Assembly: GCA_963726455.1 (NCBI GenBank)
Contig: CAVSCK010000003.1
Span: 736,001-800,000, forward strand
Source of the DNA: an uncultured bacterium
GTDB taxonomy: Bacteria; Zixibacteria; MSB-5A5; CAIYYT01
Direction: 5' to 3'
DNA length: 64,000 nt
Shown: positions 2,843 to 9,034 of the stretch, piece by piece
How the letters are laid out: each line of letters begins with the position of its first letter
Position numbering within the stretch: the stretch's first letter is position 1
Program-made: the position numbers and the translations under genes
Notes under the pieces: model-generated
Told to the model about the DNA's origin: nothing
Database searches by the model: none
The model's input: only the letters and a program-made list of their open reading frames with translations

Positions 2843-3340
2843 TCAGGCCGCTTCAGGATATGGATGTTTTGGATTACCGCCACACTTTGCGCCCGGTACA
2901 GGCGGTTTTGCTTGGTCACCGTAGTGAAGACCTGTGGTTGTCGGGGAGGTTTCAATTGCGATTGGCAATGCCACGGCATTCCACAGCGCAGCAACCACAA
3001 ATGAGTTGAGGCTCTGATTTTCCAGTTTGGCTCTCTGAGAGAGCTTTTTGTGAAGCTCCGGTCCTGTTCGAACTACGAATTTTCCACTGTAGTCGTAATC
3101 TTCTTCTTCTGGCAACGGGATTGTGACACCGTTCTCATAGTAATATGTTAGGAGTTCGTCTTTGACCTCCGCCAGCATTTCGAGCGCCTGATCGACGGTC
3201 TCTCCTGTGCCATAACAGGACAGCTTCCCAAGTTCAGCTATGAAAGCCGTGTACCTGTCTTCATCGTCATCATGGTGCTTCTCGAGCACGACTTTATACT
3301 CGAGAGCCTTGTATTGCTCCAATGTGAGTTTGTCTTTCAC
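2843..3340 (-). CDS. hicB: HicB-family antitoxin with RHH domain and C-terminal extension
   Basis: YTAFIAELGKLSCYGTGETVDQALEML...IPLP (HicB domain), YSGKFVVRTGPELHKKL...SLNSFV (RHH), then ~40 extra aa ending EAA; GTG overlaps the upstream stop. Confidence 0.88.
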   Translation of the reverse strand: MKDKLTLEQYKALEYKVVLEKHHDDDEDRYTAFIAELGKLSCYGTGETVDQALEMLAEVKDELLTYYYENGVTIPLPEEEDYDYSGKFVVRTGPELHKKLSQRAKLENQSLNSFVVAALWNAVALPIAIETSPTTTGLHYGDQAKPPVPGAKCGGNPKHPYPEAA

Positions 3341-3678
3341 ACTTCCTCCGTTATCGTCTGAATAATCAGTCGGACTGGCCGATCCAAATACCTTCTAATG
3401 TTTTGGACACGAACCATCCTATTATGCTTGCTCTTCCCTCCTATTAATGCCACCTGAAATATCCCCAGAGGCCCGTGGCATCCGTGATTGACCAATGCAT
3501 CATGCCTGTACGAAAGATGCGATCCGCCTTTAGCGGGCAATTGCAGGCATCCAAGTCTCTCTCTCAGATATTTATCAAGATCCCCGAAATTCTTCTCAGG
3601 TGGCTTGCTAGTAAGAAATACTTCCCATTCCTCCGTTAGGGCTTCTCGCTCATTGACATTATCGTCACAGAAAAGCAC
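3337..3678 (-). CDS. HicA-like mRNA interferase toxin
   Basis: FGDLDKYLRERLG...KGGSHLSYRH carries the HicA G-S-H catalytic motif; translationally coupled to hicB. Confidence 0.7.
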   Translation of the reverse strand: MLFCDDNVNEREALTEEWEVFLTSKPPEKNFGDLDKYLRERLGCLQLPAKGGSHLSYRHDALVNHGCHGPLGIFQVALIGGKSKHNRMVRVQNIRRYLDRPVRLIIQTITEEV

Positions 3679-3726: not shown

Positions 3727-4146
3727 TAATATTGTTATTTCTGGTAAAAACATATGATTTCCCGCCGCATTCGAGTGTTCTTGAGCTCCAACGCTTCAGT
3801 TAAACTCTAGTTTAAGGTCAAGAATTATGTTCGACAAGTCAAGACTTTATTGGTTGGTTTCTTGTCTTTACGGATATGTTCTTGATTTCAAATAACTTAC
3901 GAGCACCTCCTTTTCTGTTCGTTCGAAGCTTCAACACTCTGATTCCACTTCTCCCGACCGTTTGGTCGCCGAATAGGACGTTCAGCCCCCCATATATACA
4001 GCCAGTCAGTACTCTTCCTCCTTGTCGTAAACCAGAATTTCCGCCAGTCGTCTACCTAAGTGCATACCGCCTAGCGAATTAGCTGGCCCATACTTTGGCC
4101 GATAGAGTCAATTGTAGAATATAACGGTCTTTGCAATACGCCGCTG

Positions 4147-4272
4147 CTGGGTTCCAACCAGCCGGTAGCCCAGCTATCCCCTTGATCCCATTGGTTTGCA
4201 TCCTACCCAAAGCCTTGCGGCAGGTGGGTTTTTCATTCTCTGGGTACAGACTCACCAGATGGGTTACAGATT
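4147..4272 (+). repeat. modular intergenic repeat, copy 1 (degenerate motif A + hairpin C + motif B)
   Basis: AGCCGGTAGCCCAGCTATCCCCTTGATC; TTTGCATCCTACCC...GGTGGGTTTTTC; GGTACAGACTCACCAGATGGGTTACAGATT (4243-4272). Confidence 0.85.
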
Positions 4273-4389
4273 AGGCTCATCACATAGGTAACAGTTATAC
4301 TGCGTCGCGAATAAGGAGGTGACGCAGTGTGCCGAAGAGGTTTTGATGTCCAAGCTATCAACAAGCCAATCTTGCAGATACAGCGACAA

Positions 4390-5502
4390 CTACTTGATAT
4401 GGTAGCGGACTAAACGGGATACAGTGCAGGACGCATCATAATTCCAAAGGGCGTGAGAATACCTCTCGATAATGCCCACGCCTTTCGCGAAAATCAAACA
4501 ATCACCAAAGGAAGGGGAGAGCCCATGCAGTGTGCATCTTTCATACGTTGGGTAGAATCTACCGGCTGGAACAGAGTCGACACGGTCCGGCCATACGAGA
4601 GGCACAACGATTCCATCCCCATAGAAGATGCTGTCATTGCGAGCGCCGACATAACTTCCGTCGGACAGTAACCATCGAATGATACCGCCACTCTGGCTGC
4701 CAGACCGTACGTAAATGCTGTCTATTCGCACTTGGGTTGAGTCCCACAAGTACCACCACGTGGGAATGCCAGTGATGTTGGTGTCGTAGTGGCAGGTTTC
4801 ATAGACCCAGTAGTTGCCAACGGCCAGCGGCCAGTTTTCGCTCGGTCTGTAGGGCACGACAGTAATCCTGACCGATTCCGTGTCAGCCAGTTCACCATCG
4901 GAAGCCACAAACACAGGTTCGAAAACACCAAGTTGGGTTGAATCAGGAGTGAAGCTGAAGACACCGGTGCCATTGTTATCGGGGACGAAACTTGCATTCA
5001 CCGGCAGATCATAGGCTGCGACGCTGGGGAAGATGTAGTCGCTGTCATCAGCCATGATCATAAAGCTCAGTGCGATCGTGGTAACGCATGGTTGTGGCGC
5101 TATGGGGAGAAGAACGGGGCGATGTTCGTTTGCCTGAGTTACAGATATGATAGAGACGATCTCGCTGTCAGCGAGTTCACCGTCGGAGGCGTAGAATAAG
5201 ACAGAGTACGTCCCAACCTGACCAGTATCTGGAACGAACATAAAGCGGCCCTTGTTATCGCCCGCGGATGTGAAACTGGAGTGGTCGGGAAGGTTTTGGG
5301 CGGAGAGGGAAGGGATTGTACCGTCTTGATCGTTGGCAGTAACATCGAATCTTAGAGTGTCGCCGGCTCGGACGGCTTGGGGGCCAATCTCTTCCAAGAT
5401 TGGGGCGTGGTTCGACTTCGTCGGTCTTGACGGATTATCCGCGCATTGACACAGCAGAGCCAAGCCCGCCAGAACCAGCGTTAGTCTTAAGAAATGACGC
5501 AT
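4390..5502 (-). CDS. lipoprotein with tandem Ig-like (He_PIG/cadherin-like) domains
   Basis: Lipobox LLCQC; two NHAP/HRPV...ASDGELAD modules; RBS GGAGG upstream of ATG 5502. Confidence 0.75.
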   Translation of the reverse strand: MRHFLRLTLVLAGLALLCQCADNPSRPTKSNHAPILEEIGPQAVRAGDTLRFDVTANDQDGTIPSLSAQNLPDHSSFTSAGDNKGRFMFVPDTGQVGTYSVLFYASDGELADSEIVSIISVTQANEHRPVLLPIAPQPCVTTIALSFMIMADDSDYIFPSVAAYDLPVNASFVPDNNGTGVFSFTPDSTQLGVFEPVFVASDGELADTESVRITVVPYRPSENWPLAVGNYWVYETCHYDTNITGIPTWWYLWDSTQVRIDSIYVRSGSQSGGIIRWLLSDGSYVGARNDSIFYGDGIVVPLVWPDRVDSVPAGRFYPTYERCTLHGLSPSFGDCLIFAKGVGIIERYSHALWNYDASCTVSRLVRYHIK

Positions 5503-5522
5503 GAATCGCACCCTCCATACAT

Positions 5523-5551
5523 AATATAGCCAGACTCCGCGATTTTGTCAA
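5523..5551 (-). promoter_or_regulatory. sigma70 promoter of the 4390-5502 gene
   Basis: Minus strand TTGACA-17nt-TATATT. Confidence 0.7.
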
Positions 5552-5563
5552 GCAGGTTCGTCA

Positions 5564-5685
5564 AGCCGGTAGCCCCGCAATCTTCGTGATCGTCTCGAGG
5601 TACAGCCGGTAGCCCCGCAATCTTCGTGATCGTCTTGATTCGTAATTTGTAGCCCACCCAAAGGCTTCCGACGGGTGGGTTTTTC
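5564..5685 (+). repeat. modular intergenic repeat, copy 2 (tandem motif A x2 + hairpin C)
   Basis: Identical 32-mers AGCCGGTAGCCCCGCAATCTTCGTGATCGTCT at 5564 and 5604; GTAG-CCCACCC...GGGTGGG-TTTTTC at 5649-5685. Confidence 0.9.
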
Positions 5686-5723
5686 TTTGATCGATGAATG
5701 GTCGGCGCAGGCAAGAAAGTTCC

Positions 5724-5786
5724 GTAGGTCGAAACCCCGTACGGTAGCACGTCCGCACCTACGACCGCTTCTCCGTGGGTTTCGAC
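5724..5786 (+). repeat. GTAG-led REP-like palindrome
   Basis: GTAG-GTCGAAACCC...GGGTTTCGAC. Confidence 0.55.
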
Positions 5787-5895
5787 ACTTCCCTTCTTGT
5801 TTTCTGCTTGACATCGACTCGCCGATTATCCCATATTAGACATAAATGTCAGCGCTTACAGCGCAAAACGCCTCTACGAAAGGCAGGTTGAAATC

Positions 5896-6279
5896 GTGAA
5901 GAGAGCTATCGCCGCCCTCATTGTGTCGTGTTTTCTGTTCATTAATTGCGCCGCAATTTTCAAAGGCACGTCCAGCAAGCTGGATCTTTCCTCTGAACCA
6001 GACGGCGCGAGTGTATACGTGAATGGAAACTCGTGGGGCAAGACGCCAATCAAGTTGAAGCTTGAATCCAAGAAGACCTATGTGCTCGAGTTCAAGAAAG
6101 AGGGTTACGAAACGAAGACCTTCAACATCACTAACAGCGTTGGCGCCGGTTGGATTATTCTCGATATTCTCGGTGGCCTATTCCCAATCGTGATAGACGC
6201 TGCCACAGGAGCTTGGTACGATCTTGACATGGACAATATCAATGCAATCCTTGAGCAGCAAGCACAGACTCAACAGTAG
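5896..6279 (+). CDS. PEGA-domain lipoprotein
   Basis: INCAAIFKG, SSEPDGASVYVNG..GKTP..L.L...FKKEGY, hydrophobic segment then DAATGAWY. Confidence 0.85.
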   Translation: MKRAIAALIVSCFLFINCAAIFKGTSSKLDLSSEPDGASVYVNGNSWGKTPIKLKLESKKTYVLEFKKEGYETKTFNITNSVGAGWIILDILGGLFPIVIDAATGAWYDLDMDNINAILEQQAQTQQ

Positions 6280-6280
6280 C

Positions 6281-6425
6281 TTGGGTTCCGTCAGGTCTTG
6301 CGCCGCGACGATCTCTGCGTCCCTGTGTACCATTTGTTTCCGCGGCGTGTGACCTGACGGCCGAGCCGGTAGCCCCGCGATCTTCGTGATCGTCTGGTAC
6401 AGACTCATCAGAAGGGTTACAGATT
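6281..6425 (+). repeat. modular intergenic repeat, copy 3 (long hairpin + motif A + motif B)
   Basis: CCGTCAGGTC..CGCCGCG / CGCGGCG..GACCTGACGG hairpin 6288-6360; motif A 6364-6395; motif B 6396-6425. Confidence 0.9.
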
Positions 6426-6438
6426 GGCTGCAAATGAG

Positions 6439-6897
6439 ATGAAAACGATGAAAACAACAAATCACATAATGGCCCTCGCGCTCTTGCTCATCGTTGGTTG
6501 TAGCGAGCGACCCATCGGCCGAGCAGAACTCATCGGAACGTGGACGATGAGAGCTTCCTGTACAGAATTCTTGCCGGAAACGTTTCACGCCAAGCCTCCG
6601 CATCTGACTCTTAAAGGTGATGGCACCTTCTTGGCTGAAGACTTACCTGCTTCAATATTTGGTGCATCGTTTGAGCTCGAGAATTCGCATGTTGGTGGCG
6701 CAGGCAAGTGGCTTATGCGAGAAGTTGACGGATTCCAGAGACTTGAATTGGAGTTTCGCTCATCAGACTCTCCGCTGCTGAAGAGAATGCCATTCCTGGT
6801 TCGCCTGTGGTCGGAGCGGGAGAGCGGCAAAGCTGTAATCTACTTCTATCATGGCGATATCGATGGTAGCCCTCGGATCTATCTTGACCGAGGATAG
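6439..6897 (+). CDS. hypothetical lipoprotein
   Basis: Lipobox LIVGC followed by ELIGTW...L.LKGDGTF, a lipocalin-like start. Confidence 0.7.
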   Translation: MKTMKTTNHIMALALLLIVGCSERPIGRAELIGTWTMRASCTEFLPETFHAKPPHLTLKGDGTFLAEDLPASIFGASFELENSHVGGAGKWLMREVDGFQRLELEFRSSDSPLLKRMPFLVRLWSERESGKAVIYFYHGDIDGSPRIYLDRG

Positions 6898-6968
6898 TCG
6901 AAGAGGTCAAGAGCGCTCATGCGAATGTGACAGGTTCAGTGACACGCCTCAGCCAGGTTTCTGTATTT

Positions 6969-7041
6969 TTGGGTTCCGTCAGCCGGTAGCACCGCCCTCT
7001 TCGTGATCTTCGGTACAGACTCATCAGATGGGTTACAGATT
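6969..7041 (+). repeat. modular intergenic repeat, copy 4 (leader + motif A variant + motif B)
   Basis: TTGGGTTCCGTC-AGCCGGTAGCACCGCCCTCTTCGTGATCTTC-GGTACAGACTCATCAGATGGGTTACAGATT. Confidence 0.9.
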
Positions 7042-7088
7042 GGATTGGGTTTGGCGCTTCGCTGCGAACCCTGACCTACCCGACTAGG

Positions 7089-7587
7089 TCAATGTCCCGC
7101 TTTTTGGTCAATCGAAATTACGAATTCGCATCGCTTGTCCCCTTGAATGATCGAACCGACAAGACTCACTGCAACGGGAAATCCGAGCACCTGCTCGAAC
7201 AACTGTTTCAGCCAGCCGCAACTGCAGTGGCAGAAGGTGTTACTGAATGGTTCTCGGGTTTGGCTGACGCTGCCGCAGTAGCACTTGTCGTAAACTGCAA
7301 TAATTTGCTTGCCCTGTCGTGACAAGTGACCGCCGCCAATATCCGTTCTCATTCATTTTTGACAGCCAGTCATCGATGGTTGCTGATTCTCGATAGAGAC
7401 GTGCGGCCTTCTCAATGACCGATTGCCCCAGACAATTGCAGTCCTGCATGATGCGAAGACAGTCCTCACGCGAGCACTGTTGTTCGATCAACTCGATGGC
7501 TTCGCGGATAAGCGCCGCCTTTAGGTGTGGCTTTCTCTCCTGTTCGATTTCTGCTGCGATTCTGCTGCAGTTTGCGAACTGACTCAT
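7089..7587 (-). CDS. Cys-rich DUF6144/V4R-like protein, frameshifted near 7341
   Basis: ORFs 7240-7596 and 7089-7352 join into ...CNC...YDKCYC...FCHCSCGW...SIIQGDKRCEF by removing one base. Confidence 0.65.
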
Positions 7588-7739
7588 TCCCCTCAAGATA
7601 CGGGGATGCCGCTTGTCGAAATTTGTCGATGCTGAAAGGCATACATCTCTAAGTTAGCCGGCCTCAAAGGAATAGTCAATATTACCCGTTCCGTCAGGTC
7701 AGGAGGTCAGGTGAACCGGCTGCAAACCCCAACAACAGG

Positions 7740-8730: not shown

Positions 8731-9034
8731 GGTCCGTTCCGGCGGCTCTTTCACTCTGCGACACAGTATTCTCTCAACTCAGCCAACCAGTTCTTTGTGA
8801 TTGTAGATCGAAACCCCGTTCGATGCGCTTCTGCATCCTCGACAAGGTCACAATGGATTTCGAGATTTCCCTTAATGCTCTCTGCCACAGGGCATCTCGG
8901 CTTGCATATCCACTGAACCTCCTGCATGGCGCGCTCGAGCACTGCAGACATTTGTACTGCAACAGCATCGCAACAAAAAGAGCCCCGGTATAACCAGGGC
9001 TCTTCCACTCAGTAAGATAAATCGAAGTCTGTGA

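Follow-up and report, generated by a model that had tools for sequence, protein, structure and literature searches.

Probable mobile-element debris behind a cassette-like repeat array downstream of groEL in an uncultured member of the Zixibacteria

Downstream of groEL in the genome of an uncultured bacterium of the Zixibacteria, one copy of a modular repeat stands in each of four successive gaps along a run of small genes. Are these genes the cargo of an unrecognised cassette array, captured one after another through the repeat, or did the repeat arrive by some other path? The question comes from an initial annotation of a 64,000-nucleotide stretch of this genome (the window), which described a motif A, a motif B and a leader, and proposed that they are scars or recombination sites of an iterative gene-capture mechanism acting in trans. 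The answer offered here is that the array is probably a heap of mobile-element debris, left by a number of selfish elements that have no relation to one another, in a REP-rich stretch whose content varies, rather than a dedicated cassette system.

As a description of the repeat, the annotation can be trusted. All five of its copies of motif A (at 4160, where it is degenerate, and at 5564, 5604, 6364 and 6981) and all three of motif B (4243, 6396 and 7012, with 0 mismatches to the degenerate pattern) are where they were said to be, and the initial heptamer of B, GGTACAG, is indeed found at 5599-5605. Matches to A are exact at 5564-5595 and 5604-5635, carry 1 mismatch at 6364-6395 and fall to 80% at 6981-7011; the two exact copies, which are identical to each other, recur with a period of 40 nt. 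Every copy is on the + strand, in line with the single orientation claimed. The leader that was reported before most copies, TTGGGTTCCGTCAG, is exact at 6281 and 6969 and degenerate near 4150 and 5552. No further copy of A or B is present in the window at up to 3 mismatches, and dinucleotide shuffles of the window give an expectation of 0 matches to either motif (largest count, 0 in 100 shuffles). The gene calls were broadly right, with matches for the Big_9 Ig protein, the PEGA protein and a DUF6144 fragment; the 157-aa ORF, a putative lipoprotein in the annotation, matches no Pfam or NCBIfam family. The features of the locus are collected in Table 1.

The annotation did, however, overlook much of what lies between the motifs. 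A terminator-like hairpin module occurs at 4195-4237 and again at 5646-5688; the copy of B at 4243 runs on, for 90 nt, into the 5' end of an insertion sequence; a 73-nt hairpin (6288-6360) separates leader from A; and two further repeat families are present, at 5718-5790 and 7047-7086. The "modular repeat" is a mosaic, composed of an IS481-family end, REP hairpins, REPIN-like pieces and one private sequence, motif A.

Table 1. Repeat modules and genes of the array (window coordinates).
Feature	Position	Strand	Remarks
Degenerate leader and A copy 1	4150..4191	+	A = 4160-4191, ~71% to reference copy
T module, copy 1	4195..4237	+	REP-type hairpin, then T run
IS481-family left-end stub, 90 nt	4243..4332	+	96.7% identical to first 90 nt of full copies
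Ig-domain (Big_9) protein gene	4390..5511	-	sigma-70-like promoter 5551-5523, 11/12
Leader remnant, A 2a, first 7 nt of B, A 2b	5550..5635	+	A 2a 5564-5595; B 5599-5605; A 2b 5604-5635
T module, copy 2 (REP hairpin)	5640..5690	+	hairpin module 5646-5688; fold z -2.49
R5 repeat, separate interspersed family	5718..5790	+	29 genome copies, often inverted pairs
PEGA-domain protein gene	5896..6279	+	promoter-like site 5808-5837, 10/12
Complete H-family hairpin element (REPIN-like)	6281..6363	+	first 12-14 nt = "leader"
A copy 3 abutting solo B	6364..6426	+	A 6364-6395; B 6396-6426, 31 nt
157-aa ORF, no Pfam/NCBIfam family	6424..6897	+	likely start ATG ~6440
Leader (5' end of H, hairpin body deleted), A copy 4, solo B	6969..7042	+	A 6981-7011; B 7012-7042
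G hairpin repeat	7047..7086	+	family present across several genera of the taxonomic family
DUF6144-like gene	7089..7596	-	two overlapping ORFs (7089-7352, 7240-7596), apparently frameshifted

Motif B is one end of a 1324-bp element of the IS481 family: it comprises the tip and the first sub-repeat of that element's left inverted repeat, the outermost 31 nt in all. Full copies of this element lie outside the window in the same genome (G000), at G000:C3:4431-5754 and G000:C4:2689-4014, and here the check that the annotation had proposed gives a positive result, a transposase gene being flanked by the same motifs, with B as the left terminus. The statement that no recombinase or transposase is present thus holds for the window, where none of the 59 ORFs examined contains a transposase or recombinase Pfam domain, and fails for the genome. 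The ORFs of the element carry the Pfam domains HTH_32, LZ_Tnp_IS481 and rve_3; the two ORF pieces match NF033577 (IS481 family transposase) at 122.2 and 68.7 bits, scores that lie below the 224-bit whole-protein cut-off because the transposase gene is split.

The termini of the element can be fixed from its copies. Its inverted repeats pair positions 14-54 with 1272-1312 (83%), and B corresponds to positions 1-30/31. The left terminus is set by copies of B with six different left flanks, and the right terminus by three copies with different flanks; a right-end stub of 78 nt is found at C3:862-939. Within the left inverted repeat are two tandem 25-nt sub-repeats, and solo B stops exactly where the second of these begins. 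The stub at 4243-4332 extends further, to include motif B itself (4243-4273), the second sub-repeat, a Shine-Dalgarno sequence and the start codon of the transposase. In all, the genome contains seven copies of B, three of them within the 3-kb locus. No target-site duplication was found at the flanks of the C3 and C4 full copies or of the stubs, so the history of insertion cannot be read directly; this lack is consistent with later rearrangement.

The hairpin between A and B, here called the T module, is a REP. It occurs 21 times in this genome, a low number for a REP family, and many more times in its congeners (G002 and G003). In G003, on contig C233, inverted copies of T flank an intact RAYT gene, whose 177-aa protein matches Y1_Tnp at 5.6e-10 and, with 107.5 bits, clears the 80-bit cut-off of NF047646 (REP-associated tyrosine transposase). 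The cognate RAYT gene of G000 is degraded to N- and C-terminal remnants (C3:5843-6053). Ends of the insertion sequence adjoin REPs on both flanks of the C3 copy and at T-B junctions at 4237/4243 in the window and at C3:4252. In both copies of a related element from another genus (G006), the left flank ends in the first arm or the loop of a T-like hairpin, and the solo B of contig C5 adjoins another hairpin repeat. Such junctions are few and partly non-independent, the A-T-B segments at 4160-4274 of the window and at C3:4222-4334 being homologous (80%).

The leader, in its turn, is the 5' end of H, a second hairpin family, REPIN-like, with seven copies in the genome and a consensus that begins GTTCCGTCAGG. 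The leader-A copies are H-A copies from which the body of the hairpin is deleted. By eye the leader resembles the right tip of the insertion sequence, but it belongs to the H-family consensus, and the likeness was treated as chance; so was that between the last 16 nt of the PEGA gene and the start of B. Thus, of the initial proposal, the word "scars" stands: B is an insertion-sequence end stub, and the other modules are pieces of REPs or REPINs. Genome-wide scatter of the REP or MITE kind, which the annotation itself had named as evidence against its proposal, is found for B, for T and for the leader family, and not for A.

Motif A is a private sequence of 32 nt, with six copies in the genome, five of them at this locus. 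A search of 20 other family genomes turned up neither A nor B, and A had no match in two public collections scanned (one of genome contigs, one of metagenome contigs). A was considered as a decayed fragment of RAYT, and rejected. Local alignments of the five A copies with three RAYT sequences score like shuffles, with p between 0.39 and 1.0 in 13 of 15 comparisons and lowest values, uncorrected, of 0.025 and 0.072. An A-like copy at C3:4304-4385 adjoins a clear RAYT 3' remnant (E 0.005, 15 residues). Nor is A a general 3' flank of the H family, a weak likeness being seen at just one other H copy (C4:550757-550859, 75%). Other sources of the repeats were sought with as little result. A search for fragments of tRNA or tmRNA found none, and base composition is uninformative, the GC content of 0.49-0.54 over 4000-7500 being that of the surroundings.

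Comparison with relatives shows the setting to be fluid. The genes that follow groEL are not the same from species to species: at this locus groEL itself (90%) is all that G002 and G003 share, and beyond it they have different genes and copies of T. The locus downstream of dnaN, which holds another solo B, is likewise variable in the genus. The homology of the Ig gene to G003 spans 4354-5552; at either end it breaks off no more than about 20 nt from the repeats. In G003 the Ig gene has no such repeats, and it has other neighbours. The best matches of those neighbours in G000 are at 73% and lie on other contigs or 40 kb away, which leaves their orthology in doubt.

From these pieces, a history may be proposed. 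The intergenic gaps of the locus would first have been seeded by REP and REPIN elements. The IS481-family element, whose landing sites in this lineage would be REP hairpins or the DNA next to them, would then have inserted beside the REPs. Illegitimate and short-homology recombination would subsequently have removed the bodies of the insertion sequences and deleted hairpins. The same recombination may have duplicated A in tandem, with a 40-nt period, and spread the leader-A(-B) junction to neighbouring gaps, reshuffling gene segments as it did so. Under this reading, the repeats would now have no role beyond that of passive sequences for recombination and termination.

Several regularities of the locus speak against this view. 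Decay alone would not predict that five of the six copies of A and three of the seven of B lie inside 3 kb, all direct. The outer limits of leader-A-B are equal at 6281-6427 (the hairpin aside) and at 6969-7043, which points to the copying of one delimited unit, some 78 nt long. All four solo copies of B stop at nt 31, in four different right-hand contexts, and each has G there where the full element has A; such uniformity points to a specific process and not to random truncation. The Ig gene, with its other neighbours in G003, behaves as a mobile cassette would.

Two readings take these regularities at face value. On one, the IS481-family transposase, using its left-end sub-repeats as alternatives, would move a non-autonomous module in trans, either the 31-nt solo B or leader-A-B with its 78 nt, and gene segments caught between two ends could occasionally travel along. 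The tandem sub-repeats and the limits of solo B, identical on both sides in four contexts and with the copies at 7012 and C5:548584 alike at 31/31 positions, speak for it. So does a precedent from the IS110 family, for which the available text of PMC12288879 describes three kinds of circle, carrying the transposase gene, a passenger, or the two together. Such movement would be akin to the modular transposition described for ISPpu9, a REP-targeting element. We nevertheless hold it unlikely. The module has no inverted partner, and the locus contains no sequence like the right inverted repeat. Leader-A-B has neither terminal inverted repeats, its ends TTGGGTTCCGTCAG and GGGTTACAGATTGG not being complementary, nor target duplications, and no flank duplication is common to its copies or to those of solo B. 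There are just four solo copies, and both full transposase genes read as frameshifted, which may be an assembly error. Further, the related element of G006 has the same two-sub-repeat left end in both of its copies without any solo stubs, 2/2 matches being full left ends. Going beyond this, the transposase might use the sub-repeats as alternative ends and move the 31-nt module and leader-A-B independently, preferably to REP flanks, the end modules left around genes then looping out and re-inserting by recombination. This is a long shot; if true, genes could be shuffled in cassette fashion by a route that a transposase seeds and that involves no recombinase.

The other reading is the cassette array itself, in which leader-A-B would be the site for successive Campbell-type insertions of circular cassettes, driven by RecA or by a recombinase whose gene lies elsewhere, one copy of the site being left between cargo genes. 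It draws on the single direct copy in each of the four gaps, the sharp boundaries of the modules, cargo genes that are single-copy and unrelated to each other, the variable content downstream of groEL and the coincidence of the Ig-segment homology limits with the repeats. We consider it quite improbable. No recombinase was found among the 59 window ORFs, and the would-be site (6969-7043) folds no better than its shuffles (z +0.95 on the + strand, +0.48 on the - strand), which agrees with the earlier statement that it is not attC. Rfam gave no match at the gathering score in the 64-kb window and none at E up to 1 over 4000-7200. The site is, moreover, a chimera with each piece from another class of element, and its make-up differs at every junction: L-A-T-B, L-A-B7-A-T, H-A-B and L-A-B, where L is the leader and B7 the first 7 nt of B. 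With A and B not found in the 20 family genomes searched, and A without a match in either collection, no shared pool of cassettes is visible. The Ig gene points the other way, has a promoter to itself, and is free of such repeats in G003. Iterative capture with A and B as recombination sites, the mechanism first proposed, thus finds no positive support.

It is highly improbable that the repeats are regulatory sequences of co-regulated envelope-protein genes, with B as promoter or operator, T as terminator, or A-T as a small RNA. T is indeed shaped like an intrinsic terminator, and two solo copies of B precede a start codon by 10-45 nt (6396, before the ORF starting near 6440, and C5:548584, before a 148-aa ORF). 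The other two, however, face the 3' ends of convergent genes, and the T at 5646 is preceded by no + strand gene. A simple scan finds no sigma-70-like promoter in A or B, the Rfam result is no kinder to a small RNA, and neither motif is conserved in any relative. Nor are the two ORFs downstream of B detectably related (E 0.083). That faulty assembly of a metagenome bin from long reads created the composites, or raised their number, would be a very great surprise. The bin does have faults: of its essential genes, groEL is split into 2 ORFs and dnaA into 3, where groEL of G003 is one 545-aa ORF, and a 4-kb stretch is duplicated, at 99.65%, at two contig starts. Against this, the copies differ by substitutions and in module content, the genes on either side of them are intact and differ from copy to copy, all within a contig of 822 kb, and indel errors do not produce 30-nt repeats.

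The main value of the mobile-element debris reading is that a false lead is cleared: the supposed new cassette array resolves into elements of known kinds together with one private sequence. Among the papers listed when the literature was searched for insertion sequences or repeats in Zixibacteria, none contains that name. A REP/RAYT system, and an insertion sequence adjoining its REPs, are here documented in this little-studied uncultured lineage, and the regions after groEL and after dnaN emerge as variable, repeat-rich spots in the genus. The uniform 31-nt stubs and the local copying of the leader-A junction bear, in a small way, on how insertion-sequence ends decay or move.

How, then, does the array compare with known systems? 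As the annotation said, it is not CRISPR, the copies of A being spaced by 1404, 40, 760 and 617 nt with genes between. Like integron cassette arrays, it has small unrelated genes set apart by a sequence of 75-150 nt that recurs in the same orientation. Unlike them, it has no integrase in the 59 window ORFs and no attC-type imperfect palindrome, and its repeat is a chimera. Further, integron cassettes are mostly promoterless and same-strand, whereas here the Ig gene is inverted with its own promoter and the PEGA gene has a 10/12 site.

The element that supplied B resembles the IS481 family in its single DDE transposase (HTH, leucine-zipper, rve), its length of about 1.3 kb and its terminal inverted repeats of about 50 nt. 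It is unlike decayed ends of that family in that four solo stubs share their inner limit at nt 31, and in the lack of target duplications at the full copies. The two-sub-repeat ends and the REP-adjacent placement were seen in the present sequences and do not come from the description of the family.

Likeness to REP/REPIN-RAYT systems, as set out in the available text of Nunvar (2010; PMC2817692), Bertels and Rainey (2011; PMC3116915) and Ton-Hoang (2012; PMC3333891), lies in T, a short GC-rich intergenic hairpin whose inverted copies flank the RAYT gene of G003, and in the H and R5 families, which recall REPIN doublets. The differences from what is described there are the low copy numbers (21 for T, 7 for H, 29 for R5), the degraded cognate RAYT, and copies in the window that are direct and not alternating. 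REP sequences serve as targets of IS1397, ISKpn1, ISPsy8, ISPa11 and ISPpu9/10 in the account of Tobes and Pareja (2006; PMC1525189), the available text of which ascribes experimentally shown selectivity for REPs to the IS3 and IS110 families; the term IS481 does not occur in that paper. Like such elements, the ends found here abut or split REP hairpins and have REP fragments on their flanks; here, though, the evidence for the link is a small number of junctions, not all of them independent.

Pneumococcal BOX elements are composite intergenic repeats built of few modules in variable combinations. The present locus has the same kind of architecture, which it shares with the enterobacterial BIMEs as these are presented in the available text of PMC2817692. 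BIME and BOX elements are, as far as described, genome-wide and present in tens to hundreds of copies, whereas the A-containing composite occupies one 3-kb locus and one other site.

The repeats downstream of groEL are assembled from a small set of modules (Table). The initial annotation had placed copies of motifs A and B here, with the first 7 nt of B at 5599, all in one orientation and not noticed elsewhere in the window; these points are confirmed, all copies being on the plus strand and no further A or B copy occurring in the window. None would be expected in dinucleotide shuffles. The intervening genes are likewise as claimed (an Ig-domain protein, a PEGA protein, and DUF6144), with the third ORF belonging to no family. 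Module order differs by junction, being L-A-T-B, L-A-B(7 nt)-A-T, H-A-B, and L-A-B at the four junctions, where L is the leader. The base composition of the locus is unremarkable. Immediately before the first repeat composite, an AT-richer stretch (2843-3678, GC 0.42-0.47) holds the gene of a HicB-family antitoxin (2843-3340, minus strand), which a 113-aa ORF without family (3337-3678) overlaps.

Repeat modules and intervening genes downstream of groEL, in window positions
Feature	Position	Strand	Remark
Motif A	5564 and 5604	+	exact
Motif A	6364	+	1 mismatch
Motif A	6981	+	80%
Motif A	4160	+	about 71%
Motif B	4243, 6396, 7012	+	
B, first 7 nt	5599		
Leader	6281 and 6969		exact 14-mer
T, terminator-like hairpin	4195-4237; 5646-5688		between A and B; after A
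H, 73-nt hairpin	6288-6360		between leader and A
R5 repeat	5718-5790		
G hairpin repeat	7047-7086		
Ig-domain (Big_9) protein gene	between repeats	-	
PEGA protein gene	between repeats		
157-aa ORF without family	between repeats		
DUF6144 fragment	between repeats		

Motif B is the end of an insertion sequence of the IS481 family. The transposase gene that the initial annotation proposed to seek beside the motifs exists for B: elsewhere in the source genome, at C3:5754 and C4:2689, a 1324-bp element starts with B as its first 30 nt (C3, C4, and C5 are contigs of this genome, and the window is C3:736001-800000). The element has two overlapping ORFs, with HTH_32, LZ_Tnp_IS481, and rve_3 domains, which match NCBIfam NF033577 (IS481 family transposase) with 122 and 68.7 bits. 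Its positions 14-54 and 1272-1312 form inverted repeats; the right terminus is set by three copies with differing flanks, the left by B copies with six differing left flanks. A related element in another genus (genome G006) starts with the same end in both of its copies. This shared left end has a tip and, behind it, two 25-nt sub-repeats in tandem.

Genome-wide, B is found beyond the locus as well as in it. Its seven copies are the three at the locus, C5:548584, C3:4223-4252, C3:5725-5754, and C4:2689-2718, the last a duplicate of C3:5725-5754. The stretch 4243-4332 is a truncated copy of the element: it matches the first 90 nt at 96.7% identity, and these take in the Shine-Dalgarno sequence and the start codon. 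A counterpart, a solo 78-nt right-end stub (93.6%), lies at C3:862-939. Four B copies (6396, 7012, C5:548584, and C3:4223) are solo stubs of 31 nt. All four finish at nt 31, exactly at the start of the second sub-repeat, with G as the last base in place of the A of the full element.

Motif A is private to this genome. When the genome is scanned with a profile built on the six A copies, exactly six matches are significant, the five at the locus and C3:4304-4334 (next-best match, E 1.1); five of the six fall within 3 kb. The motifs did not turn up in relatives, where the initial annotation would have sought them: neither was found when 20 further genomes of the family were searched (A at up to 3 mismatches), nor did A match anything in the genome_contigs or metagenome_contigs scans. 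Adjacency at C3:4304-4385 prompted the idea that A derives from a gene for a REP-associated tyrosine transposase (RAYT); it scored like shuffles.

The T hairpin is a REP. The source genome has 21 copies, in both orientations, and its congeners have far more. In congener G003, T and an inverted T bracket a 177-aa gene that lies downstream of the groEL ortholog, at a distance of about 3 kb; this gene matches Pfam Y1_Tnp (5.6e-10) and NCBIfam NF047646 (REP-associated tyrosine transposase; 107.5 bits, cut-off 80). A RAYT gene bracketed by inverted REP copies is the defining REP/RAYT arrangement (excerpts of PMC2817692, PMC3116915, and PMC3333891). The source genome holds only N- and C-terminal RAYT remnants, adjoining an insertion-sequence copy.

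The leader belongs to the H family (seven copies) as its 5' end; the family consensus begins GTTCCGTCAGG and finishes in the complementary arm. A complete H element (6281-6363) stands at A copy 3. In A copies 1, 2a, and 4, the H start is joined straight to A; the same hairpin deletion is therefore common to all three. The join between leader and A formed a single time and was copied afterwards.

Insertion-sequence ends lie beside REPs. The C3 element copy has an inverted T at its left and T at its right, and in both G006 copies the left flank ends within a T-like hairpin, in its first arm or its loop. At 4237/4243 and C3:4252, the junction of T with B (T|B) lies 14 nt past the hairpin; the two A-T-B units there are homologous (80%) and may represent one event. 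The C5 solo B comes after another hairpin repeat. REPs are documented insertion-sequence targets, with experimental evidence for the IS3 and IS110 families (PMC1525189); that paper nowhere uses the term IS481.

The region downstream of groEL is variable. The groEL gene is 90% identical in congeners G002 and G003, but the downstream DNA of one species is unrelated to that of another; in G003 it contains four T copies, the RAYT gene, a G hairpin, and a small gene enclosed by direct T copies. For the Ig gene, G003 has an 80% ortholog between an MFS-like and an ABC ATPase-like gene (labels read from sequence), and A, B, and T are absent from its vicinity. The homology covers 4354-5552, so that on either side no more than about 20 nt separate its end from the repeats. 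The locus after dnaN, with another solo B, is also variable in the genus and repeat-rich.

Other repeats and genes may be recorded here. Small ORFs after dnaN (G000:C5:548500-549400, in the source genome) are bracketed by a hairpin repeat of type GCGGCGCAC...GCCGCGCACTGAC, found at 100% identity over about 30 nt in all three congeners. R5 has 29 copies in the source genome, often as REPIN-like inverted pairs about 20 nt apart; besides 5718-5790, the window has R5 at 8802-8868, and copies occur in genomes G001, G004, and G010 too. The G hairpin, of type GTCGGGTTTGG...AACCCGACCTAC, has copies 91-94% identical in at least eight genomes, which represent two genera of the family. Beside the PEGA gene of G025 (contig C5 of that genome), from another family of the class, lies a similar hairpin. 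The PEGA gene at 5956-6255 shares 72% nucleotide identity with that gene and, within its own family, had no match among the other 20 genomes, which suggests either strong conservation combined with losses or a horizontal transfer.

Two features of the assembly bear on these comparisons. Here, two ORFs (572-1048 and 1065-2267) make up groEL, which in G003 is a single 545-aa ORF, and dnaA is broken into three (55-1486 of locus L008, G000:C5:545000-553000). The assembly probably contains indel errors; alternatively, these are real pseudogenes. Sequencing errors may accordingly account for the frameshifts in the transposase and for single-base differences from one repeat copy to another. A search for sequencing runs covering the locus found none. 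Further, a 4-kb stretch is duplicated at 99.65% at two contig starts (G000:C3:4431-8442 and C4:1-4014). The two full element copies lie in this stretch, which besides the insertion sequence holds three REPs, RAYT remnants, and about 740 codons (the 3' part) of a 1250-aa subtilase-dockerin gene. As contig C4 begins inside this stretch, the duplication is either real or a join problem.

The locus is probably the product of REP and REPIN seeding, IS481-family insertion, and recombination that left debris. In the order that we infer, gaps of the variable region would have been filled by REP and REPIN elements, and the IS481-family element, presumably landing at REPs, would have inserted there. Illegitimate and short-homology recombination would then have removed hairpins (T at A|B, H at L-A) as well as the bodies of the elements, of which 90-nt and 31-nt stubs stayed behind. 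The same recombination would have yielded the identical 40-nt tandem of A, and the junction would have been copied into adjacent gaps, presumably during reshuffling of gene segments.

This history leaves unaccounted the uniform nt-31 end of the solo B copies, at the second sub-repeat and with its shared G, the recurrence of a defined 78-nt leader-A-B unit, and the clustering of A. These keep alive two alternatives. Mobilization of end modules in trans is unlikely; it has a precedent in another family, the modular transposition of REP-targeting ISPpu9 (excerpts of PMC12288879). Campbell-type capture of cassettes, the initial reading of the repeats as sites or scars of gene capture acting in trans, is more doubtful still. 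Either would have to contend with the lack of an inverted partner end and of target duplications, with leader-A-B folding no better than shuffles (z +0.95) and having no Rfam match, and with neither A nor B being found outside this genome. Against both, too, no recombinase was found in 59 ORFs of the window, in line with the initial annotation. A new cassette system is unsupported. The IS481-family remnants and the REP/RAYT repeats are of known kinds, and this locus is a new example of them.
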